NCBI GenBank assembly: GCA_964427615.1
Contig: CAYRUR010000005.1
Coordinates: forward strand, 15,369-79,368
Reading direction: 5' to 3'
From: an uncultured Gammaproteobacteria bacterium
GTDB lineage: Bacteria > Patescibacteriota > Microgenomatia > Levybacterales > GWA1-39-11
Length of the DNA stretch: 64,000 nucleotides
Shown here: positions 2,054 to 50,186 of the stretch, piece by piece
Numbering within the stretch: the first letter of the stretch is position 1
How the letters are laid out: the number at the start of each line of letters is the position of its first letter
Notes under the pieces: generated by a model
Told to the model about the DNA's origin: nothing
The model's database searches: none
Seen by the model: the letters and a program-made list of their open reading frames with translations, nothing else
Translations under genes and position numbers: made by a program

Positions 2054-2442
2054 ATATACTCACAAATAATATCTATTGTCTCTTTGTTCCCTTGCTGCAA
2101 TTTTTGTAAATCAGTAATAACTTTTTGAATTGCAGCAGTTGAAGAGGTGAAATTTTCCGAAGTAATATTGGCAAGCTGGCTTTGTGCATTCTGGATAATC
2201 TGCTCAACATCTTTTTTTGTCGGAATTTTTACGTTTTCCGGAGGCGTATACTCTTTGGGAATAGCATGAGAACTGGATTTTTCAAGAGAAGAAGTATCAG
2301 ATGGCCATAACAACATACCTGCAGCAATAAGCATCACTAAAATGATAAAGGCTATAAAAAGACGAGGTTTACTCCACTGTTGCTCTACCACCTCTTCTTT
2401 GAGTGTTTGTTTTTCCCCTACATTTTTTTCTATCTTTTTCAT
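2044..2442 (-). CDS. hypothetical membrane-anchored protein
   Basis: 132 aa with one N-proximal TM (LFIAFIILVMLIAAGMLLW). No recognisable domain. Confidence 0.4.
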   Translation of the reverse strand: MKKIEKNVGEKQTLKEEVVEQQWSKPRLFIAFIILVMLIAAGMLLWPSDTSSLEKSSSHAIPKEYTPPENVKIPTKKDVEQIIQNAQSQLANITSENFTSSTAAIQKVITDLQKLQQGNKETIDIICEYICK

Positions 2443-2544
2443 TTTTTACTTAAAGATACTTTTATTATGGGGAAAAATTACAGTATTCGTCAATGGAGGG
2501 GATTAGTGTATAGTGATTAGAAAATTAGTAAAAAGTTTGTAAAG

Positions 2545-2610
2545 AAATCAGAGAACGGAAAACAAGATTCAGGATTTAAGATTTAGGATTCAAGAATAAG
2601 TATAAAATAT
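2545..2610. repeat. Intergenic repeat modules (aaatcagagaacggaaaacaag plus degenerate ttaRgaWt heptamer-like run); same modules recur at 9822-9890 in swapped order
   Basis: aaatcagagaRcRgaaaacaag occurs at ~2545 and ~9867. gattcagga followed by taag/ttagga/taagaat repeats occurs at 2566-2606 and 9828-9862. Confidence 0.5.
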
Positions 2611-2698
2611 TGGACAAAAAGTCAAAGCTTAGAAATCAAAATTCAAAAATACATGTCAAAAGTAAAAAGTTTGAAATGAGATACTGGTTAGGATGAGC

Positions 2699-2940
2699 CC
2701 AAACTAGACATGTCATCCTGAACTTGATTCAGGATCCAGGAAAAAAAGATATAGATTCCAAATGCAGTTTGGAAAATTACAGGCTTTGTAAAGGCTTAAA
2801 GTAAAACGAAGCTTTTAACTTTTAAACTGTGCTTTGCTATACTCAGCATCCTGAGCTTGTCGAATGGATACTTTTGCCTTTTGACTTTTGAGTTTTTAGA
2901 TTTAACATTTAAGCTTCTTTATTTTACATCCTGAATCTGC
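2699..2940. repeat. Three copies of the atcctgaRcttgWYgaa motif in the prfB upstream gap; the first copy is a perfect hairpin (atcctgaa cttga ttcaggat)
   Basis: Copies at 2702-2725, 2836-2858 and 2917-2936. A fourth copy at 9903-9923 (aatcctgagcttgtcgaagga). Confidence 0.5.
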
Positions 2941-2967
2941 TCATGATACAATCATGAGGTATTTATT

Positions 2968-3981
2968 ATGGAGAACCTCAAAGAAAGAGCCGAAATTTTG
3001 TTAAACCGTATTAATCTTGAAGAACGGCAAACAAAGATAAGAGAGATAGAATCTCTTTCTATGGATCCTCTCTTTTGGCAAGACACTCAAAAAGCAACAG
3101 AACAAATGAAAACGTTAGCTGCTTTGCAAAAGGAAGTAGATGATGTTGAAAAAATAAGACAGCTGCTTGAACAGGAAAAATATGAAGAATTACAGTCCTT
3201 AGTAGAAGAGTTAGAGCTTTTTATTTACCTTTCAGGAGAATACGATAACCACAATGCAATTCTTTCCATTCATGCAGGGCAAGGTGGTGCAGATGCTATG
3301 GATTGGGCCTCTATTTTGTTTAGGATGTATTCTCGTTACTGTGAGCGCAAAGGCTGGAAGTATGAAATCATTGACTATAATGCAGGAGAGGAAGCAGGGA
3401 TAAAAAACGTGAGTCTTTTAATAGAAGGTGATCATGCTTTTGGATATCTAAAAGGAGAGCAGGGTGTGCACAGACTCGTTAGGCTTTCTCCTTTTAATGC
3501 TGACCATTTGCGTCATACCTCTTTTTCTTTAGTAGAAGTATTGCCCCAAATTGAGGAAGTAAAAGGAGTAGAGATAAAAGAAGATGATTTAGAATGGGAA
3601 TTTTATAGAGCCTCAGGGCACGGAGGACAAAATGTGCAAAAGGTTTCAAGTGCTGTAAGAGTAAAACACAAGCCGACAGGACTTGTAGTTACTGCCCAAA
3701 CAGAGCGGTATCAGGCACAAAATAGAGAATATGCCTTAAAGATACTGAAAGCAAAATTATGGGCACTTCAGGAGGAAAAAAGGAAAAAAGAGGAAAAAGA
3801 AATGAAAGGTGGCTATACGCCTCCCTCCTGGGGAAATCAAATTAGAAATTATGTCATGCATCCATATCAGATGGTAAAAGATACGCGCACAGGACAAGAA
3901 ACAGGAAATGTAGAAAAAGTTTTAGATGGAGATATAGATAGTTTTATAGAAGCAGAGTTAAAGATGGCAGATAAAATATAA
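2968..3981 (+). CDS. prfB: peptide chain release factor 2
   Basis: 337 aa with the SPF motif (RLSPFNADH) and the GGQ motif (GHGGQNVQK). Single uninterrupted ORF with no +1 frameshift site. Confidence 0.9.
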   Translation: MENLKERAEILLNRINLEERQTKIREIESLSMDPLFWQDTQKATEQMKTLAALQKEVDDVEKIRQLLEQEKYEELQSLVEELELFIYLSGEYDNHNAILSIHAGQGGADAMDWASILFRMYSRYCERKGWKYEIIDYNAGEEAGIKNVSLLIEGDHAFGYLKGEQGVHRLVRLSPFNADHLRHTSFSLVEVLPQIEEVKGVEIKEDDLEWEFYRASGHGGQNVQKVSSAVRVKHKPTGLVVTAQTERYQAQNREYALKILKAKLWALQEEKRKKEEKEMKGGYTPPSWGNQIRNYVMHPYQMVKDTRTGQETGNVEKVLDGDIDSFIEAELKMADKI

Positions 3982-4162
3982 AGGTTTCTTCCTTAATTTC
4001 ACCTCATTTATTTTTTTCTTACTATTTGGTCAGCATAAGGTCTTTTTCAAGTGAAAATAGCTACTTTTATTTGGCATTTGATCTACGCTTTTCTACTGAG
4101 AAGCATAGAGCAAATAGCTTGTAAATTATTTTAAAATGTGATTTACTATTAGAGAATTGTTT

Positions 4163-4621
4163 ATGGAAAAGAAACCTGCCGTTCTGCACAATTTTGAAGG
4201 CAAAGCTGCTTCAAATTCTTCTCGAAAAGTATTTATAGTGCTTCTTGTTTTTCTATTACTTGGTGGTCTTACTGGGTATGGTGTGGCTAGCTTTACAAGC
4301 AATGGATCTTCTCTCTCTTCGGACTCAGGTGAATCATCACAAAACAATACTAATATCAAAAAAGGAACAGTGGTAGGTGTGCAAGATGAAAAGACATTTA
4401 CTGATAACGCAGAAGGCGTACTTCGTGATGGAGGTATAGAGGGTGAAGGTACTCATCATCTTGAAAGACCAGGAGGAGAGTCTCAAAACGTATATCTTAC
4501 TTCATCTGTTTTAAATCTTTCAGACTTTGCAGGAAGGAAAATAAAGGTGTGGGGAAAGACATATGCAGGAGAGAAAGCAGGGTGGTTAATGGATGTGGGA
4601 AGAGTACAGGTATTGGACTAA
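4163..4621 (+). CDS. hypothetical membrane-anchored secreted protein
   Basis: The ORF opens at TTG 4157; ATG at 4163 is the likely start. One TM (VFIVLLVFLLLGGLTGYGV) followed by a Ser-rich region. Confidence 0.4.
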   Translation: MEKKPAVLHNFEGKAASNSSRKVFIVLLVFLLLGGLTGYGVASFTSNGSSLSSDSGESSQNNTNIKKGTVVGVQDEKTFTDNAEGVLRDGGIEGEGTHHLERPGGESQNVYLTSSVLNLSDFAGRKIKVWGKTYAGEKAGWLMDVGRVQVLD

Positions 4622-4652
4622 CAACTTAAATTAGACTGTTTGCTAAAAACAC

Positions 4653-5408
4653 ATGATTAAATTCCAGAATGTTTCAAAACAATATGGTAAGGAGACGCTT
4701 GTTCTTGACGACGTTTCTTTTGTGATAGATCCCGGAAATTTTGTATTTCTCGTTGGTCCTACTGGTGCGGGAAAGACCACTATTTTTCGCATGCTTATCA
4801 AAGACTTAGAGCCGTCTTCAGGTGATATTTACTTAGGAGATTGGCACTTGGCAAAGCTTTCAGGGAGTAAAATTCCGCATTTAAGAAGAAAAGTCGGAAC
4901 CATATTTCAAGACTTAAAACTACTTATGGACAGGACGGTTATTGAAAATGTGATGTTGCCGTTGATGGTTGCGGGAGTGGGGGAAAAAGAAGCAAAAGGA
5001 AAAGCAGAAGAGGCACTTTTTAACGTAGGGCTTGGTGGAAAAGAAATAAAATTCCCACTGCAGCTTTCAGGAGGAGAAAGACAACGAGTGGCAATTGCCA
5101 GAGCTTTGATTTTTGAACCTGAAGTGCTTTTGGCAGATGAGCCAACCGGAAATTTGGATCTACAAACATCTTTGCAAATCCTTGATCTGCTGGATAGCAT
5201 TAATAAAAAAGGTACAACGATTCTCATGGCAACGCACAACGACACGATTATTGAAAAAACTGATAAGCGAATTTTAATGATGGAGAAGGGAAAGCTTGTC
5301 AAGGATAAAGACGCAAAAAAGAAAGAAAAAGAAGCAGAGACTCCAAAAAAAGAGGAACAACCAGATGAAAAAGAAATGAAAGGAGAAAAGAAACATGAAA
5401 CATCTTAA
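4653..5408 (+). CDS. ftsE: cell division ATP-binding protein FtsE with Lys/Glu-rich C-terminal tail
   Basis: MIKFQNVSKQYG, Walker A GPTGAGKTT, ABC signature LSGGERQRVAIARAL. Directly followed by ftsX. Confidence 0.85.
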   Translation: MIKFQNVSKQYGKETLVLDDVSFVIDPGNFVFLVGPTGAGKTTIFRMLIKDLEPSSGDIYLGDWHLAKLSGSKIPHLRRKVGTIFQDLKLLMDRTVIENVMLPLMVAGVGEKEAKGKAEEALFNVGLGGKEIKFPLQLSGGERQRVAIARALIFEPEVLLADEPTGNLDLQTSLQILDLLDSINKKGTTILMATHNDTIIEKTDKRILMMEKGKLVKDKDAKKKEKEAETPKKEEQPDEKEMKGEKKHETS

Positions 5409-6264
5409 AACAGTTACCAAATATATGCGGCGTTCGCCATATCAGTCTGTTTCGGCAGCATTGATTATGACGCTTACTTTCTTTGCGGTAACCGTGTTTG
5501 CTCTTTTGACGATTACTTCACTGCGTTTCATGAACTATTTCGAATCTCGTCCCCAATTGACTATTTTCTTTACTGAATCAGCAACAGTTGAAGATATTGC
5601 TAACATGAAAGCTCAGTTAGAGGCAACAGGTAAGACATCATCTATACGTTACATTTCCAAAGAAGATGCTCTGAAAATTTACCAAAGATTGAATGCAAAT
5701 GACCCTTTGTTACTTGATTTAGTTACTGCTGAAACACTTCCTGCCTCACTTGAGGTACAGCCTACAAAAGCAGAGTACCTTTCAGACTTAGCACGGATGG
5801 TAAAAGATGCTCCTAATATAGAGCAGATTACATACCAAGAGGATATGGTAAAAACACTTATTGCTTGGATCAACGCATTCAAAGGAATTGGTATAGCAGT
5901 GATTGCAGTCTTGGCAATGGTATCTACTTTTGTCATTTTGACTATTATTGGCATTAAGATAACCGTTAGGAAAGAAGAAATTAATATCATGAAGCTGATG
6001 GGTGCATCTCATTGGTTCATTCGTATGCCATTTTTGGTAGAGGGAATGATTTATGGATTTATTGGTTCACTGCTCGGATGGATTGTGTCTGTCTCTCTTT
6101 TGCTCTATTTCACGCCGACACTGCAAACTTTCTTTAATAAGCTGCCAGTATTTCCTTTGCCTCCTGTAGTGTTGGTAGAGTTGCTGATACTAGAGGTGAT
6201 TTTCGCAAGTATATTAGGGATGTTTGCCAGTTTTATAGCTGTTCTTCGATATTTAAGAACATGA
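5395..6264 (+). CDS. ftsX: cell division permease-like protein FtsX
   Basis: 289 aa, N-terminal TM, large extracytoplasmic loop, then 3 C-terminal TMs. Overlaps the ftsE stop. Confidence 0.8.
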   Translation: MKHLKTVTKYMRRSPYQSVSAALIMTLTFFAVTVFALLTITSLRFMNYFESRPQLTIFFTESATVEDIANMKAQLEATGKTSSIRYISKEDALKIYQRLNANDPLLLDLVTAETLPASLEVQPTKAEYLSDLARMVKDAPNIEQITYQEDMVKTLIAWINAFKGIGIAVIAVLAMVSTFVILTIIGIKITVRKEEINIMKLMGASHWFIRMPFLVEGMIYGFIGSLLGWIVSVSLLLYFTPTLQTFFNKLPVFPLPPVVLVELLILEVIFASILGMFASFIAVLRYLRT

Positions 6265-7475
6265 GGAAGGTATATACATGGATCATCAGGATATTTTTAA
6301 TTGTTGCTGTACCTGTCTTTGTGTTTAAAACAGGGTTAGTCCTTGCGCAGACCACTACTCCTACTCCAACTCCTGATTCATCAAGTAAGGTAGCAGATCT
6401 CCAAAAAAAAATAGATGAGTTAGAAAAAGCGATTGCCCAAAAAAAAGAAGAGGGAAGAACGATTTCAAACCAGATTAGTGTTATGGATAATCAGATACGC
6501 GTAACAGAACTCAGGATTAATGCAACACAGGCAAAAATTAATGAACTGGAAAAAGACATTACCGTTACTAAAGATAAAATAGGAGGACTTGAAGATAACA
6601 TTCATACCTCTGTGTCCACCATGCTCGGAAGAATTACAGCTACTTACACTGTTGGAAGCATTAACCCTTTTGAGATCTTACTTACCTCGGACACGCTTGA
6701 GAATTTCATGAAGCGCTTGACGTATTTAAAAATTGTGCAAGCAGCAGATAAGAAGAACTTATATGCTGCAGAACAGGCAAAAGTAACATATGCACAAGAA
6801 AAAGAAAAGTTAGAGCAAAAACAGCAAGAGACAGAAGATCTGCGTAAAAAATTAGATGAATATACATCCCAAATTGAAGGTGAGAAAGCACAAAAAAAGA
6901 ATCTACTTGATGCAACAAAAAATGATGAAAAAAAATATCAGCAAATGTTGGCTCAAGCAAAAGCACAAATAAATTCCTTTAAGTCTTTTGCAAGTTTTAG
7001 TGGAGGATCTATTCTTCCTGCTCAAGCCAGTCCTGATGGATGGTATTACAACCAACGAGATGAGAGATGGGGAAAAAATACTATTGGTGCATCTTCTGAA
7101 AGAGTTTGGGAAGTAGGCTGTCTGGTAACAGCAACTGCAATGCTTCGTAAACAAAGGGGAGAGAATGTTACCCCTGCAGATGTTGCTGCAGAGCAAAGTT
7201 ACTTTTTTGCAGATACTGCTATGATGTCTATTCCTTGGAATGGTGGTAGATTTACATCTAGAAGTAAGGATATGGGGGCTATTGATAGTAAGCTTGCCAA
7301 TGGAACACCAGTTATAGTAGGTTTGAATGCAGGACCATATGGTACTCATTTTATCGTTCTTAAAAGTGGATCAGGTGGTAGTTATGTTATGAATGATCCA
7401 TGGAATGGGGCTAACCTTAATTTTTCAAGCTACTACTCAGTGGGCCAAATTTTCCAATATGGGTATTTAAATTAG
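6261..7475 (+). CDS. EnvC/PcsB-like coiled-coil protein with C-terminal C39-like (Peptidase_C39_2-type) cysteine peptidase domain
   Basis: Signal/TM segment, TPTPTP linker and long coiled coil (LENFMKRLTYLKIVQAADKKNL resembles EnvC/PcsB). C-terminal region has Cys in EVGCLVTATAML and His in GTHFIVLKSG...NDPWNG. Overlaps the ftsX stop by 4 bp. Confidence 0.7.
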   Translation: MRKVYTWIIRIFLIVAVPVFVFKTGLVLAQTTTPTPTPDSSSKVADLQKKIDELEKAIAQKKEEGRTISNQISVMDNQIRVTELRINATQAKINELEKDITVTKDKIGGLEDNIHTSVSTMLGRITATYTVGSINPFEILLTSDTLENFMKRLTYLKIVQAADKKNLYAAEQAKVTYAQEKEKLEQKQQETEDLRKKLDEYTSQIEGEKAQKKNLLDATKNDEKKYQQMLAQAKAQINSFKSFASFSGGSILPAQASPDGWYYNQRDERWGKNTIGASSERVWEVGCLVTATAMLRKQRGENVTPADVAAEQSYFFADTAMMSIPWNGGRFTSRSKDMGAIDSKLANGTPVIVGLNAGPYGTHFIVLKSGSGGSYVMNDPWNGANLNFSSYYSVGQIFQYGYLN

Positions 7476-7616
7476 TTTATTGCTCCAAAAGATTATTGAT
7501 CGCAACTTCCTGGTTTTGCATAGAAATAATCTAGCTTATCATTTCTGTTTTCTACTCATCTAACTAACTTTGAGATTTTTTGCTTCTTGTAAAGATAAGT
7601 TGTAGTATAAAAAGAG

Positions 7617-8474
7617 ATGCGTAAAAAGTTCTTTACACTTCTGGTTTTTACTCTTATTTTCTTTATTTTTCCTTCCTCTCTTTTTGCTGATGAAGGTAAT
7701 TTGGTGATTAATGAGTTTTCATCTTATGATTCGGATGATTGGGTAGAAATATATAACAATGGAGATAGCATTAAAAATCTTTCTGCTTATTTTTTGCAAG
7801 ATGATGCAGGGAACTCTAAGCCATTAACGGGAGAGATACAGCCACATGAATTTGCCGTGTTTGGATTTGGAAAGAGCCTTGATAAGCAGGGAGATATTAT
7901 TAGACTTTTAAGAGTAGATGACGAATCAAAAGATGTAGATAAAGTCGCATATGGAAATGAAAGTGGTGCTGTTGTTCCTGCACCTGAAAGTGGTCAATTG
8001 GCAGGGAGGAAAATAGATGGGAAAGGGGAGTGGGTTATTTTTACTTCTCCTACAAAAGGTAAAACGAATAATGGCGCTCAACTTTTCCCTACTCCCACTC
8101 CAACACCTACGTTGACTCCTACCCCAACAAAAGCAAAAAATACTCCTACCCCAAAAGAAGAAGCAACCCCTACTCAAGTGGCTACTCCAACTGAAACTGC
8201 AAAACAAGAAATTACTTCAAAAAAAGTGCCAAAAAGGCTTTATCAAGTACCAGATGCTATTACTCAAAATGGATCGTTATCTGCTAATCTAGAAGATGTT
8301 TTGTCAGCGAGTGATGATGCTTCACCTGAATCCACAGTATCAACTACTTCTGCAAGAGAAGAGGGAGATGCGTCAGGAAGTGGAAAATTTTTTATCTCAG
8401 CAGGAATTATCTTTTTTATTGCCTGTGCCATCGTGCTTTACCGCAGGTACATAAATGGTTCAGAAGATATATAA
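7617..8474 (+). CDS. surface protein with lamin-tail-domain (LTD)-like N-terminal domain, PT-rich linker and C-terminal TM anchor
   Basis: Signal peptide; LVINEFSSYDSDDWVEIYNNG is LTD-like; linker PTPTPTPTLTPTPT; C-terminal hydrophobic FFISAGIIFFIACAIVLY. Confidence 0.55.
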   Translation: MRKKFFTLLVFTLIFFIFPSSLFADEGNLVINEFSSYDSDDWVEIYNNGDSIKNLSAYFLQDDAGNSKPLTGEIQPHEFAVFGFGKSLDKQGDIIRLLRVDDESKDVDKVAYGNESGAVVPAPESGQLAGRKIDGKGEWVIFTSPTKGKTNNGAQLFPTPTPTPTLTPTPTKAKNTPTPKEEATPTQVATPTETAKQEITSKKVPKRLYQVPDAITQNGSLSANLEDVLSASDDASPESTVSTTSAREEGDASGSGKFFISAGIIFFIACAIVLYRRYINGSEDI

Positions 8475-8482
8475 TAAATAGC

Positions 8483-8917
8483 ATGGAAAAGGTTATTATT
8501 ACCAAAACAGAAGAAGAGACACAAAACGCAGCAGCAGAGTTTGCTCAAAGTCTGAAACCAGGAACAGTAATTTGTCTGTATGGAGAATTAGGAGCAGGGA
8601 AAACCACATTTTCCAAAGGTTTAGCTCGCGGTCTTGGTGTATCATCTCGGATTATTTCTCCCACGTTTACTTTAGTTAGACAGCATCAAATACAGGAGGG
8701 AAAAGGGACGTTATATCATCTTGATTTATATCGTCTAGAACGTGAAGAAGATGTACGGGGAATCGGTTTTGAGGAAATGGTGCAGGATAAAAATGGAATT
8801 ATGCTGATTGAATGGGCTGAAAAATTAGGGAAATTACTTCCCTCAAAAAGAATTGATATTCGACTTGAAGCGGTATCTGCTGCTGAGCGAAAAATAAGTA
8901 TTCAAGAAAGAATGTAG
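8483..8917 (+). CDS. tsaE: tRNA threonylcarbamoyladenosine biosynthesis protein TsaE (YjeE ATPase)
   Basis: 144 aa with P-loop GELGAGKTTFSKGLARGLGV, typical of YjeE/TsaE. Confidence 0.8.
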   Translation: MEKVIITKTEEETQNAAAEFAQSLKPGTVICLYGELGAGKTTFSKGLARGLGVSSRIISPTFTLVRQHQIQEGKGTLYHLDLYRLEREEDVRGIGFEEMVQDKNGIMLIEWAEKLGKLLPSKRIDIRLEAVSAAERKISIQERM

Positions 8918-9228
8918 CCTCTTTTCCCTCTACTTTTACCAAAGTCAGATTATTGTCAGGAATACGTTTTCTCTTCGTCAAGCACCCTATTCTCTTATCC
9001 GGTATCCTCTTAATCAGATAGAAACAAATGATGGAGGTGAAGGATTTATGTATTTAATAAGACATGATTACAAATATCTCAATAAGTACCTAAATTTCTA
9101 TTTTGGATATATGCAAAAGGAAAACGTCCTTTACAAGAAAGAGAAAAAGCAAGAAAAACAAAAACGTAAGTAAGCATTACCTATTATGAAAGCTTTTAAA
9201 TTCTCTCAATTCGTTTATAATATCCCTA

Positions 9229-9822
9229 ATGGAAAGAGAGGCCCTCCGGGCAATTGATATTTTAAAAAAAGGTGGCGTTATTGTTTTTCCCACAGATACT
9301 GCATTTGGAATTGGTTGCAGAGTTGATAATGAAAAAGCAGTAGAAAGAATTTTTGCGATAAAAGGAAGAGATGAGCGTAAAGCTACTCCAGTTCTGGTTT
9401 CCTCAATAGATATGGCTCAACAATATGTTGATGATATTCCCTCTGGAGCCTATCAACTGATGGAAAAATATTGGCCTGGTGCTTTGACTATTGTTTTACC
9501 CAGTACTCAAGCTCAAGTACCAACTCTGGTTACTGGTGGTAGTAATTCATTAGGGGTCAGGATGCCAGACTATTTTTTACTGTTACAAATAATTGAGGCA
9601 GTTGGTGTGCCCCTAATAGGCACTTCCGCAAATCTCTCAGGGGAAAATACACCCTTTACTGTTGAAGGACTTAATCCTTCTCTTGTAAGACAAGTAGATA
9701 TGGTTCTTTCCGGATCATGTAAAATAAAACAGCCGTCAACGGTTGTAGATTACACACAAACTCCTTATCGGATTTTGAGAGAAGGTGCGATACGGTTGGA
9801 GAAAGAGATTCAAGATTTATGA
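9229..9822 (+). CDS. tsaC: L-threonylcarbamoyladenylate synthase (YrdC/Sua5 family)
   Basis: 197 aa. VIVFPTDTAFGIGCRVDNEKAVERIFAIKGRDERKATPVLV matches the YrdC fold. Confidence 0.8.
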   Translation: MEREALRAIDILKKGGVIVFPTDTAFGIGCRVDNEKAVERIFAIKGRDERKATPVLVSSIDMAQQYVDDIPSGAYQLMEKYWPGALTIVLPSTQAQVPTLVTGGSNSLGVRMPDYFLLLQIIEAVGVPLIGTSANLSGENTPFTVEGLNPSLVRQVDMVLSGSCKIKQPSTVVDYTQTPYRILREGAIRLEKEIQDL

Positions 9823-9990
9823 TTCAGGAATAAGAATTACGAATTAGGAATTAAGAGAAGAAAACAGAAATCAGAGAGCAGAAAACAAGCGTCATTGCGA
9901 GTAATCCTGAGCTTGTCGAAGGAGAAGCAATCCCCTTACCTACAGGGATCGCCACAGGAACTAATCGTTCCTTCGCGATGACGAGGTAGT
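9822..9990. repeat. Composite intergenic repeat region between tsaC and tsaB, containing copy B of the GC-rich element with ~12-nt imperfect flanking inverted repeats
   Basis: 9827-9862 gattcaggaataag... module; ~9867 aaatcagagagcagaaaacaag; 9903-9923 atcctgagcttgtcgaagga; 9927-9985 matches the reverse complement of 541-598. cgtcattgcgag (9890-9901) and its partner cttcgcgatgacgag (9971-9985) form an imperfect inverted repeat. Confidence 0.55.
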
Positions 9991-10038
9991 TCACTCTTTA
10001 GAATTTCGAATTTAGTGCTTAGAATTGAACATTTAACC

Positions 10039-10359
10039 ATGAATATCCTATCTATTGATACATCAAATAATAAAGAAATAGTAGTAACGTTGACAGTGGG
10101 TGGTAAAGGCTTTGAAGAAAGGCTTGCTCAGCATAAATCAGGTGCAGAGGAAACCCTTATTTTAATAGAAAAACTGCTTAAAGAAAGTGCTATTACACTC
10201 AAAGATATAGAAATGATAACGGTACATACAGGGCCTGGTTCTTTTACAGGCCTTCGAGTAGGGGTAGCAATTGCCAACGCACTCTCTTTTTCTTTGGGTA
10301 TACCAGTCAATGACAAAAAGAATGGGGAAATTGAAATTCCTATCTATAATCCTCTATGA
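10039..10359 (+). CDS. tsaB: TsaB (YeaZ)-like t6A protein, N-terminal domain only (about half normal length)
   Basis: MNILSIDTSNN...TVHTGPGSFTGLRVGVAIANALSFSLGIPV matches the TsaB N-terminal actin-like subdomain. Ends after ~107 aa. The track ORF starts at 10015; the ATG at 10039 is the preferred start. Confidence 0.6.
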   Translation: MNILSIDTSNNKEIVVTLTVGGKGFEERLAQHKSGAEETLILIEKLLKESAITLKDIEMITVHTGPGSFTGLRVGVAIANALSFSLGIPVNDKKNGEIEIPIYNPL

Positions 10360-48695: not shown

Positions 48696-50186
48696 ATGTA
48701 CTACTCTGGAAAAAGCAACGGGATAGCAAATACTACAGGTAGGGAGTATACTAGTGGCATGGTAAAGGCAGTTTGGGACAGTAAATCGGGAGGAGATTTT
48801 AGTGCCTCTTTTGATTGTTATATTGCAGAAGCATTGCTATCAGAAGGCTGGGCAGTTGGGACATGCGAAGAAGTAATGGATAGATACAAGGTCTCAACGC
48901 TTGAAGAGCTTGCTCAAAAACAGCAAGAAAAACTACAAACATTTCCTCGTCTAGAAAAACTTTTTTATGAAGTAGAAATGCCTATGGCCAAGATACTATG
49001 GCAAATGGAGCAGAAAGGTATTTTGCTTGATACAAAAAAGCTGCAAGCAGTTGGGAGTGAGATAGATAGTTTAGTGAAGTCAGCACAAGAACAGATAAGA
49101 AAAGAAATAGGAGATGAAATTAATATCAACTCTCCAACACAATTAGGTGCTTTTTTAGCGGAGAAATTGGGTATTCCATTAGGACGTACCAAGACTGGAA
49201 AGTATGCAACAAATGAAAGGGAACTATCTAAATTTAGAGAGCAATTTCCTATCATTGACAATTTGTTACTTTTTCGAGAATTGATGAAATTGCGTTCTAC
49301 TTATGTGGAAAGCCTTATTCAAAAAGTAGATAAAGACAGCCGAATTCATACCACTTATCACCAAGTATATGTCAGTACAGGAAGACTTGCGTCTTCCAAT
49401 CCCAATTTACAAAATATTCCTGTTTCATCTCCTATTGGACTCAAGATAAAATCATGTTTTGTGGCTTCTCCTGGATTCACGCTTGTTTCTTTTGATTACT
49501 CTCAACAAGAACTTCGTATTCTTGCACATCTCACAGGAGAAAAGGCATTGATACAGGCGTTTGAAGAAAACGTGGATGTGCATAGTTTGACTGCAAGCAA
49601 ACTTTTTGATGTAGTTCCTTCAGAGGTTTCCAAACAGCAAAGAACTATTGGAAAAACAATTAATTTTGGCATTATTTATGGCATGAGTAGTTTTGGCATG
49701 AGTGAAGGATTACGGATTCCTCAAGCGGATGCAGAGAAATTTATCCAACAATTTTATGCTTCTTATCAACAGATAAAAGGGTATTACGATACGTATCTAA
49801 AAAATGCCCGTATTCATGGTTTTGTTGAAACACTTTTAGGACGAAGACGATATGTTTTTGATGATCCTGGCAAGCATTTTATTGACAATGGTATGAAGCG
49901 GGTACTGATGAATTATCCGATTCAAGGGAGTGCTGCTGATTTAATGAAAAAAGCTATGGTAGATGTACAAAAAACAGTTCTTGCAAAATACCCTGATATT
50001 TCGCTACTTCTACAGATTCATGACGAACTTATATTTGAAGTACCTGATACGGATAAAAAGAAACTTATGAAAATTATTAGTGAAATAAAAACAGTATTAT
50101 GCTCTGTGTATCCACTACAAGTGCCTCTAGCAGTGGATGTAAAGATAGGAAAACAGTGGGGAGACATGCAGAGATTTGATAAGTAA
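48696..50186 (+). CDS. polA: DNA polymerase I, polymerase (palm/fingers/thumb) domain only; no 5'-3' exonuclease or 3'-5' exonuclease domain
   Basis: Family A motifs RRRYVFDD..., motif A DYSQQELRILAH, motif B RTIGKTINFGIIYG, motif C LQIHDELIFEV. ORF is 496 aa and the upstream 170 bp is non-coding on this strand. Confidence 0.8.
   Translation: MYYSGKSNGIANTTGREYTSGMVKAVWDSKSGGDFSASFDCYIAEALLSEGWAVGTCEEVMDRYKVSTLEELAQKQQEKLQTFPRLEKLFYEVEMPMAKILWQMEQKGILLDTKKLQAVGSEIDSLVKSAQEQIRKEIGDEININSPTQLGAFLAEKLGIPLGRTKTGKYATNERELSKFREQFPIIDNLLLFRELMKLRSTYVESLIQKVDKDSRIHTTYHQVYVSTGRLASSNPNLQNIPVSSPIGLKIKSCFVASPGFTLVSFDYSQQELRILAHLTGEKALIQAFEENVDVHSLTASKLFDVVPSEVSKQQRTIGKTINFGIIYGMSSFGMSEGLRIPQADAEKFIQQFYASYQQIKGYYDTYLKNARIHGFVETLLGRRRYVFDDPGKHFIDNGMKRVLMNYPIQGSAADLMKKAMVDVQKTVLAKYPDISLLLQIHDELIFEVPDTDKKKLMKIISEIKTVLCSVYPLQVPLAVDVKIGKQWGDMQRFDK

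Follow-up and report, generated by a model that had tools for sequence, protein, structure and literature searches.

A secreted coiled-coil protein with a Peptidase_C39_2-type head, encoded directly downstream of ftsX in Microgenomates, as a candidate FtsEX partner

The window analysed here, a stretch of DNA of 64,000 nucleotides, carries on its + strand a compact group of genes built around ftsE and ftsX. The gene ftsE (4653..5408, +) encodes the ABC ATPase of FtsEX, and its product matched TIGR02673 (FtsE) with an E-value of 4.8e-78 (261.7 bits, the cut-off being 264.85) and the Pfam family ABC_tran with an E-value of 1.1e-32. The gene ftsX (5395..6264, +; alternative start at 5425) encodes the permease-like subunit with its extracellular domain and was identified by both Pfam and NCBIfam. 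The FtsX_ECD domain is intact and covers residues 54–145 (E 5.4e-15), the FtsX C-terminal domain covers residues 168–288 (E 1.1e-13), and the NCBIfam models FtsX_Gneg and FtsX_Gpos were matched with E-values of 3.6e-52 and 5.8e-50, respectively. The third gene (6261..7475, +) encodes a secreted coiled-coil protein of 404 amino acids with a C39_2 peptidase head.

An earlier note on this DNA had described the three genes as overlapping, and the sequence bears this out, with 14 nt shared by ftsE and ftsX and 4 nt shared by ftsX and the 404-aa gene. The ftsX ATG at 5395, with an AGGAG 9 nt 5' of it, lies inside ftsE, the TAA of which is at 5406–5408. The second overlap is an ATGA, formed by the ATG of the 404-aa gene (6261) and the TGA of ftsX. 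The ftsE/ftsX overlap hinges on the choice of start codon, because the public gene call for an identical contig begins ftsX 30 nt later, at window position 5425; the overlap between ftsX and the 404-aa gene is unaffected by that choice.

Upstream of ftsE are prfB (release factor 2; 2968..3981, +), recognized by the Pfam domains PCRF and RF-1 on the identical contig, and the gene for a small single-pass membrane protein of 152–154 aa (4157..4621, +), which stands out by its positional conservation. While prfB is found 5' of ftsE in most related loci, the small membrane protein occupies the same position in 35 further loci (39–59% identity). Searches of Pfam and the PDB with the latter returned no match and NCBIfam no meaningful one; the NCBIfam name LytA lipoprotein was rejected, as that match reached 23.9 bits against a cut-off of 110 and covered only the transmembrane/low-complexity part. 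From its position alone, it is possible that this protein is an accessory component. On the other side, after a gap of 141 nt, lies the gene for a lamin-tail-domain protein, secreted or anchored (7617..8474, +; Pfam LTD, E 1.1e-8), which follows the group in many related loci, though not in every one. It is probably a separate transcription unit, and its tie to the FtsEX system is not supported beyond synteny. A promoter/terminator scan of positions 2400–9300 performed no better than on shuffled sequences and was uninformative on transcription units. The organism makes peptidoglycan: genes for a class A PBP, for MurI and for a sortase are present in the window, as are those for several further secreted proteins.

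The N-terminal part of the 404-aa protein has all three elements that the earlier note had listed, namely a signal segment, a PT linker and an EnvC/PcsB-type coiled coil. The translation begins with a signal peptide (residues 1–29, ending in VLA before QT) followed by a PT-rich linker with the sequence QTTTPTPTPD (residues 30–39), the two together spanning 6261..6377 (+). This stretch has a pLDDT of 24–39 in the model; the hydrophobic N-terminus, an A-Q-T/E motif and TP repeats recur across the family alignment. Next comes an antiparallel coiled-coil hairpin (residues 40–246, turn near 132–145; 6378..6998, +), supported by NCBIfam, by alignment with EnvC and by the AF2 model. It matched the NCBIfam EnvC model over model positions 2–197 (E 5e-12) and aligned without gaps over 205 residues with the solved EnvC structure 8hd0_E, residues 34–238 (E 5e-7). 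In the AF2 model the helices comprise residues 41–63, 68–131, 136–142 and 146–246, forming a simple two-helix hairpin, and the Pfam family CC_PcsB (PF24568) was found on relatives of the protein.

When the full-length model was compared with known FtsEX partners by Foldseek, PcsB, RipC and EnvC came out at the top. The best PDB matches were PcsB (4cgk, ranked first), RipC in the FtsEX/RipC complex (8idc_E, ranked third), EnvC in FtsEX (8tzl_E) and EnvC 6tpi_A. The hairpin segment that corresponds to the FtsX-binding region of EnvC (residues 118–164) shows no higher conservation than other parts of the coiled coil do (0.62 vs 0.61–0.71), and an argument from special conservation of the FtsX-contact segment was therefore dropped. 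The coiled coil is joined to the catalytic domain by a linker with the pattern SILPxQxSPDG (residues 247–258; 6999..7034, +), recognized by its conservation: its mean top-residue frequency of 0.76 equals that of the catalytic domain, and P253, Q255 and S257 are invariant or nearly so.

The C-terminal domain (residues 259–404; 7035..7472, +) was assigned to the papain-like cysteine peptidases of the Peptidase_C39_2 type by Pfam (PF13529), AF2 and Foldseek. The motifs quoted in the earlier note lie within it, YYNQRDERWG at residues 262–271, GCLVTATAML at 286–295, GTHFIVLKSG at 361–370 and NDPWNG at 378–383. The full-length protein scored 23.0 bits for PF13529, slightly below the gathering threshold of 24, and the isolated domain scored 27.4. 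With a score above the threshold in isolation, and with Gln, Cys, His and Asp set in a papain-like fold, the domain belongs to C39_2, as the note had read it. C39_2 was matched in all 28 family members scanned (best E 1.3e-9), and more distant members reached E-values of 1e-13 to 1e-14 (45–55 bits). Peptidase_C39 (PF03412) was additionally matched in 18 of the 28, as weak HMM matches, and was not reached by the query domain itself at E ≤ 0.1.

These searches also bear on whether the protein could be an ordinary PcsB, CwlO or RipC orthologue, with a CHAP or NlpC/P60 head diverged past recognition. Such a reading is invited by the JGI label "peptidoglycan hydrolase CwlO-like protein" carried by several members, and by the papain fold that CHAP, NlpC/P60 and C39_2 share. 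The label, however, comes from the coiled-coil part, and neither CHAP nor NLPC_P60 nor Peptidase_M23 was matched at E ≤ 0.1 in any of the 28 members, in agreement with the note's statement that the C-terminus is not LytM, CHAP or NlpC/P60. The NCBIfam PcsB model gave 14.6 bits against a cut-off of 450, the DIP1281 model matched on the coiled coil only, and the NlpC/P60 structures Tse1 and Tae1 aligned less well with the domain model (TMq about 0.35) than C39-type structures did (about 0.5). The domain data thus already contradict this reading, to which we give almost no credence. The note's phrase "distinct hydrolase class" holds at the level of the family, C39_2, and does not hold at the level of the fold, all three families being papain-like. 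Within the papain-like superfamily, C39_2 falls in cluster I, and CHAP and NlpC/P60 in cluster II (PMC10318531).

Four residues make up a candidate active site, and each is without a single substitution among the family representatives clustered at 50% identity (149 representatives). By analogy with papain-like enzymes, Gln265 (codon 7053..7055, +; Q in 146/146 aligned representatives) is a candidate for the oxyanion hole. Cys287 (7119..7121, +; C in 147/147 aligned representatives), the candidate nucleophile, is placed by the model at the N-terminus of a helix (domain residues 43–54), which is the papain-fold position. The candidate general base, His363 (7347..7349, +; H in 151/151), is at the start of a strand (domain residues 118–125). 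Asp379 (7395..7397, +; D in 151/151), the candidate third residue of the triad, closes the strand that follows (domain residues 131–135), in a DP motif whose Pro is likewise present in 151/151. The catalytic dyad on which the earlier note had staked its proposal is therefore conserved in homologues, together with the Gln and the Asp.

Because these four residues are never substituted among diverse representatives, the head bears the signature of an active enzyme, and it is apparently competent for catalysis. This matters for a second reading, in which the C-terminal domain would bind and activate a separate hydrolase without cutting anything itself. EnvC, the best sequence match of the coiled coil, acts as such an adaptor through a degenerate LytM domain (PMC11627006); the LytM domain of EnvC, however, is without catalytic residues, whereas Gln, Cys, His and Asp are all retained here, and an adaptor role of this kind is very unlikely.

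The AF2 model of the isolated domain (pLDDT 86.6, pTM 0.86) found as its top PDB match 3erv, a C39-like peptidase, followed by PeiR (8z4h), and among the best were also the C39 domains of PCAT1 and ComA. The similarity to solved proteins is modest throughout (TM about 0.5, 12–19% identity). A profile search with the domain drew no PDB sequence at E ≤ 10, so that the kinship to solved structures is visible at the level of the fold only. Among viral models (BFVD), the best matches (TMq 0.62–0.71) were to large proteins of phages with annotations as wall hydrolase or tape measure. A direct relationship to phage lysins in sequence is unsupported, since 50,697 phage records searched by tblastn with the domain returned nothing and the PHROGs matches were weak (a family of unknown function at E 2.8e-4, and part of an endolysin family at E 1.4e-3).

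What the head would cut is the point on which a third reading differs. The domain could be a protease acting under FtsEX control on a protein substrate, for example by maturing or shedding a pilus, S-layer or wall-anchored protein where the cell divides. Characterised C39 relatives, such as those cleaving double-glycine leaders, do act on polypeptides; PCAT1 and ComA are among the best structural matches; one relative (P0268) has the domain fused to a T4SS pilin-like segment; and the window has genes for a sortase and several secreted proteins. On the other hand, the FtsEX partners characterised to date all either attack peptidoglycan or switch on enzymes that attack it (PMC11627006). PeiR, which matches the structure equally well, cuts a peptide of the wall, and the domain also turns up in phage proteins that carry an annotation as wall hydrolases. 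Its subtype is joined to wall-binding repeats as well: in a surface protein of Streptococcus it stands C-terminal to six ChW repeats and one Bsp-like repeat. A protein substrate is therefore unlikely in our view. A cell-wall substrate for the C39_2 head is plausible by analogy, because the subtype occurs with ChW repeats and resembles phage proteins annotated as wall hydrolases, and because a C39-like domain has been predicted in mycobacteriophage LysA endolysins (PMC3314691).

In all, 468 homologues of the 404-aa protein were found at E ≤ 1e-3, nearly all of about 400 aa. In every one of the 41 Microgenomates loci examined, which span Levy-, Woese- and Shapirobacteria, a homologue lies immediately 3' of ftsX, and in 33 of 40 the two ORFs overlap or are separated by at most 30 nt; an arrangement kept to this extent is not due to chance. 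The order recurs in a high-GC locus, L057, as prfB-ftsE-ftsX-[CC-C39_2]-ctpA, and the coiled-coil/C39_2 gene likewise follows ftsX at L052. At L053, from another genome, the slot after ftsE-ftsX holds a coiled-coil protein with an M23 head. The linkage to ftsEX is nevertheless lineage-specific, since Parcubacteria-type members (26–29% identity) lie downstream of gltX and not of ftsEX, and one high-GC member is also unlinked. In this respect it parallels pcsB and envC.

The conserved position speaks to a further possibility, that the protein is a weapon, a lysin secreted by an epibiotic CPR cell against the wall of its host and lying beside ftsEX by accident. CPR bacteria are often episymbionts, and the domain resembles the lysin modules associated with phage virions. 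An offensive lysin would not, however, be expected to keep its place after ftsX in 41 of 41 loci of three lineages, to recur there beside ctpA in a high-GC lineage, or to carry at its N-terminus a predicted FtsX-docking coiled coil, and we regard it as extremely unlikely.

The reading that we prefer, at a probability of roughly 0.6, is that in this small-genome bacterium of the Microgenomates type (Patescibacteria/CPR) the 404-aa protein is the extracytoplasmic partner of FtsEX, acting like PcsB, CwlO or RipC as a controlled septal peptidoglycan hydrolase, with a head from another part of the papain clan. The Sec signal peptide seen in the sequence would direct export. The two-helix hairpin would then dock on the FtsX dimer at its extracellular domains, as suggested by the homology of the coiled coil to EnvC and PcsB and by the operon linkage. 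If the solved EnvC and RipC complexes are a guide, FtsE at the divisome would bind and hydrolyse ATP and thereby change the conformation of the hairpin, and the C-terminal domain would be released or activated. The C39_2 head would then act as a cysteine peptidase through Gln265, Cys287, His363 and Asp379, presumably cleaving peptide stems or cross-links of the septal peptidoglycan and so separating the daughter cells. We know of no characterised C39_2 protein that serves as a division hydrolase. More tentatively, and less probably than not, the C39_2-headed protein could be the principal or only FtsEX-controlled septum splitter of Microgenomates and some other lineages, cutting another bond than the known partners do. 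A cross-bridge of small residues (Gly/Ala) or an isopeptide link may serve as examples, which would echo that C39 peptidases are specific for double-glycine sites and that PeiR is an isopeptidase.

The activation of wall hydrolases by FtsEX is conserved in bacterial division and in part essential, and the partners understood so far have three kinds of head: degenerate LytM, CHAP and NlpC/P60. A literature search (FtsEX or FtsX with Peptidase_C39_2 and with Patescibacteria or CPR; C39-like with peptidoglycan; COG3883; PcsB with C39), from whose coverage most subscription journals fell out, returned no description of the present architecture. What is already known is that the family is large and that members bear the JGI CwlO-like label; the mechanism expected is the known one, and no new principle. 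It is plausible, though, that a C39_2 head on an FtsEX partner makes a variant of the septum-cutting machine unlike those of the bacteria studied. If so, it would be a fourth head, from another branch of the papain superfamily, and would widen the picture of one handle with many blades, the FtsX-docking coiled coil being a universal handle on which unrelated wall-cutting heads, M23, CHAP, NlpC/P60 and C39_2, are swapped in one operon slot; other genomes indeed have an M23 head of the EnvC type in that slot. Such a fourth head would also offer a clue to septum splitting in the very large, uncultivated Patescibacteria, and a first physiological role for Peptidase_C39_2, a widespread and functionally orphan family with almost no characterised members. 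The compact module of three or four genes would then lend itself to biochemical reconstitution.

Among known proteins, the head is closest to Peptidase_C39_2 as represented by 3erv, a putative C39-like peptidase of Bacillus anthracis, with which it shares the HMM family and the Q/C/H/D pattern. The members of this family described so far are all single-domain peptidases of unknown or transporter-associated role, with genes close to those of transporters (PMC10318531), unlike the present protein with its coiled coil, and the YYNQRD-x-RWG insert between Gln and Cys further distinguishes it from other Peptidase_C39_2. Peptidase_C39 (PF03412; ComA, PCAT1) has a related fold and is also partnered with an ABC-type machine. 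In bacteriocin ABC exporters, however, that domain is cytoplasmic, N-terminal on the transporter, and cleaves the double-glycine leader of exported peptides, whereas the head described here is predicted to be extracellular and is C-terminal on a separate protein; FtsEX itself is a mechanotransmitter and not an exporter (PMC11627006). The pseudomurein endoisopeptidase PeiR is the second-best PDB match to the domain, and the N5 domain of mycobacteriophage LysA is predicted to be C39-like, with an HHpred match to the same B. anthracis peptidase (PMC3314691). Both are phage or prophage lysins acting externally or at lysis, with neither a coiled coil nor control by FtsEX.

PcsB of Streptococcus pneumoniae is alike in being secreted and about 400 aa long, and in its layout, which runs from a signal peptide through a long coiled coil and a short linker to a papain-like Cys/His hydrolase at the C-terminus. 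Its head is CHAP (cluster II) and not C39_2 (cluster I), the PcsB model touches the coiled-coil part of the 404-aa protein only, and the simple two-helix hairpin of the latter is of the EnvC type, unlike that of PcsB. Moreover, pcsB is unlinked to ftsEX, whereas the 404-aa gene lies within the ftsEX operon. CwlO of B. subtilis and RipC of M. tuberculosis and Corynebacterium likewise have an N-terminal coiled coil on a direct hydrolase partner of FtsX. Their head is NlpC/P60, absent from the 28 scanned members of this family, and the DIP1281 NlpC/P60 model matches residues 27–243 of the 404-aa protein, that is, its coiled coil. Cofactors of the SweCD or SteAB type are not evident here, though the small membrane protein is conserved 5' of ftsE. 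EnvC of E. coli and Vibrio comes closest to the coiled coil in sequence and has one of the same length; its NCBIfam model covers that part only (45.5 bits against a threshold of 270), and no Peptidase_M23 match accompanies it. The head of EnvC is a degenerate LytM domain, whereas that of the 404-aa protein is a cysteine peptidase with an intact predicted active site, so that it would be expected to cut directly and not to activate amidases.

In the window, where the GC content is about 37%, the genes ftsE (4653–5408) and ftsX (5395–6264) are followed on the plus strand by an ORF of 404 aa (6261–7475). FtsE was identified by TIGR02673 (E = 4.8e-78), and both the FtsX_ECD and the FtsX permease domains were matched in FtsX. 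The ATG of ftsX (5395) gives a 14-nt overlap with ftsE and has an AGGAG 9 nt 5' of it; since the public gene call for the identical contig places the ftsX start at an ATG 30 nt further downstream, this overlap depends on the choice of start. The ftsX stop overlaps the ATG of the third gene as ATGA. The overlaps claimed for the three genes in the earlier note were found at both junctions, the first being start-dependent.

The 404-aa protein has a Sec-type signal peptide (residues 1–29, ending in VLA before QT), a Thr/Pro linker (30–39) and a coiled coil (40–246) homologous to the coil by which EnvC and PcsB dock on FtsX. The coil matched the EnvC model (positions 2–197, E = 5e-12) and, without gaps over 205 residues, the solved E. 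coli EnvC (8hd0_E, residues 34–238; E = 5e-7). An AlphaFold2 model of the full-length protein, built from an alignment of 38 sequences (mean pLDDT 79), has helices at 41–63, 68–131 and 146–246 and a short turn helix at 136–142, forming a two-helix hairpin as in EnvC. When this model was compared with the PDB by Foldseek, PcsB (4cgk) ranked first, followed by the RipC chain of the FtsEX/RipC structure (8idc_E) and by EnvC bound to FtsEX (8tzl_E, 6tpi_A). The EnvC/PcsB-type coil read from the sequence was thereby supported, and PcsB, with which a model was to be compared, was the best PDB match of the full-length model. Conservation in residues 219–258, where the second helix ends and the linker follows, equals that of the catalytic domain, which makes this stretch a candidate for autoinhibition.

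The C-terminal head belongs to Peptidase_C39_2 (PF13529; Pfam cut-off 24 bits) and not to the CHAP, NlpC/P60 or EnvC families. The full-length protein scored 23.0 bits, slightly below the cut-off, and the isolated domain (window 6993–7472) 27.4 bits, above it. All 28 family members scanned matched Peptidase_C39_2 (best E = 1.3e-9) and 18 matched Peptidase_C39, while none matched CHAP, NLPC_P60 or Peptidase_M23 at E ≤ 0.1. Remoter members reached 45–55 bits, which places the group securely in PF13529. The motifs quoted in the earlier note were all present (residues 262–271, 286–295, 361–370 and 378–383), and its reading of the C-terminus as C39_2-like, outside LytM, CHAP and NlpC/P60, agrees with these scores. 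Its description of a distinct class held in that the family is different, but not at a higher level, as the domain falls in the same papain-like clan as the CHAP and NlpC/P60 heads. A classification of the papain superfamily assigns C39 and C39_2, like papain and staphopain, to cluster I, and NlpC/P60 and CHAP to cluster II (PMC10318531).

The domain model (pLDDT 86.6, pTM 0.86) has the papain layout, with the Cys at the N-terminus of a helix and the His and Asp on neighbouring strands. Its top PDB matches, at TM of about 0.5, were 3erv (a putative C39-like peptidase of B. anthracis), the pseudomurein endoisopeptidase PeiR and the C39 domains of PCAT1/ComA; the NlpC/P60 effectors Tse1 and Tae1 matched more poorly (TM about 0.35). 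Both the HMM and the fold results contradict a reading of the protein as a CHAP or NlpC/P60 orthologue that has diverged. In a viral structure library, the top matches (TMq 0.62–0.71) were large proteins of phages, whose annotations read phi29-type morphogenesis/wall hydrolase, tape measure or lysozyme, and a C39-like domain has been predicted in mycobacteriophage endolysins (PMC3314691). Since characterised C39 relatives cut polypeptides, it is possible that the head is a protease directed at proteins.

The residues Q265, C287, H363 and D379 are invariant in the 38-sequence alignment (48–58% identity to the query). When 1.84 billion representatives (clusters at 50% identity) were searched with a profile, 2987 proteins reached E ≤ 1e-3, of which 394 reached E ≤ 1e-10; in the best 149 of them, none of the four residues was ever replaced where the position was present (Q 146, C 147, H 151, D 151), the remaining rows being gaps from fragments. 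The conservation of these putative catalytic residues, on which the earlier claim also turned, is thus strict. While the LytM domain of EnvC has lost its catalytic residues (PMC11627006), the site of the 404-aa protein is invariant, so that a non-catalytic adaptor of the EnvC kind is unlikely.

This large family already has an automatic "CwlO-like" label. A word-indexed search returned 468 homologues, nearly all of about 400 aa and from sources named Patescibacteria or Levybacteria, several being labelled "peptidoglycan hydrolase CwlO-like protein" by JGI; the coiled coil was also present in 122 of the 149 closest domain representatives. A scan with one genome per species returned 49 loci. In all 41 loci with 35–58% identity (Levy-, Woese- and Shapirobacteria and unnamed Microgenomates), the gene was directly 3' of ftsX, with ftsE before ftsX wherever the contig permits and prfB usually upstream. 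The third gene, taken from its longest-ORF start, overlapped the ftsX stop or lay within 30 nt of it in 33 of 40 loci, as did ftsX relative to ftsE in 37 of 40. An offensive lysin is unlikely given this conserved coupling to ftsX. Many of the MAG records with this Microgenomates-type operon (L002, L004, L005, L008, L013–L017, L026–L028 and others) are titled "uncultured Gammaproteobacteria" or "Pseudomonadales", and one homologue (L043) comes from a contig in a "Bathyarchaeia archaeon" bin; such names seem to be placeholders, errors of labelling or the result of mis-binning.

Parcubacteria-type members (26–29% identity) have the same architecture but follow gltX (glutamyl-tRNA synthetase), directly in L048 (2242–5158) and L051 (1359–4207) and with an overlap in L051; NifU and NifS genes are downstream on the opposite strand. 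Ala-rich members were found in high-GC genomes. In one of these (L057) the order is prfB-ftsE-ftsX-[coiled coil-C39_2]-ctpA, and in another (L053, GCA_964383855.1; 5001–10595) the C39_2-headed gene lies two genes 5' of an ftsE-ftsX operon whose third protein has a coiled coil and a Peptidase_M23 head. A C39_2-headed protein can therefore take the operon slot that is filled in other genomes by an EnvC-type M23 protein, and in L053, which also has a gene for a CHAP-domain protein close by, one FtsEX may serve two coiled-coil partners that differ in their heads. In a third high-GC genome (L055) the member is unlinked to ftsEX. The same domain subtype, YYNQRD-x-RWG included, occurs in a Streptococcus surface protein with six ChW repeats and a Bsp-like repeat, and in a Dormibacterota protein it is joined to an N-terminus rich in repeats. 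Uses beyond division are hinted at by a 343-aa protein (P0268), in which the subtype is joined to a T4SS pilin-like segment, and by a giant of 5244 aa (P0264) with four stretches matched by the profile.

Other genes of the window deserve mention. The gene prfB (2968–3981, +; RF2, SPF motif) is one unbroken ORF with no CTTTGAC-type +1 frameshift site in or near it (closest matches at 2621, minus strand, and 9482), and the gene thus seems to lack the autoregulatory frameshift that is usual for prfB. Between prfB and ftsE (4157–4621, +) is a single-pass membrane protein of 152–154 aa, for which no family was found in Pfam, PDB or NCBIfam; it keeps this position in 35 other loci (39–59% identity), and judging by position it could be an FtsEX accessory factor with a role like SweCD/SteAB. 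The putative hydrolase gene is followed after 141 nt by that of a secreted lamin-tail-domain protein (7617–8474, +) with a Thr/Pro-rich linker and a hydrophobic C-terminal anchor, found downstream, and followed by tsaE, in many Levybacteria-type loci. Here tsaE (8483–8917, +) is grouped with a Sua5/TsaC-family gene (9229–9822) and a short ORF (10015–10359) that looks TsaB-like from its N-terminal sequence; together (8483–10359, +) they would form a t6A-modification cluster beside the division operon. A family A DNA polymerase ORF (48696–50186, +) has only 496 aa, with DNA_pol_A filling residues 114–490, so that, compared with a complete PolA, the exonuclease domains are absent or encoded elsewhere.

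Genes for a class A PBP, a glutamate racemase and a sortase also lie in the window, indicating that the organism builds peptidoglycan. By analogy with the solved EnvC and RipC systems (PMC11627006), the hairpin would bind the extracellular domains of FtsX, the ATPase cycle of FtsE would alter its conformation, and the head, thereby freed or activated, would cleave septal peptidoglycan peptides. The 404-aa protein would act like PcsB, CwlO or RipC. With every functional step inferred, and with "distinct class" read as a different family, both the observation and the interpretation of the earlier note are upheld.

No FtsEX partner that combines a coiled coil with C39_2 is described in the literature searched, whose coverage is incomplete. 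In the papain-superfamily classification, C39_2 proteins appear as single-domain peptidases encoded close to transporter genes, and division is not brought up (PMC10318531). The significance would be greater if these lineages had no other septal hydrolase or if the enzyme cut a new bond. The FtsEX partners covered in a review carry only LytM (EnvC), CHAP (PcsB) or NlpC/P60 (RipC, CwlO) heads (PMC11627006), and a partner with a C39_2 head is a variation on this known arrangement rather than a new principle.
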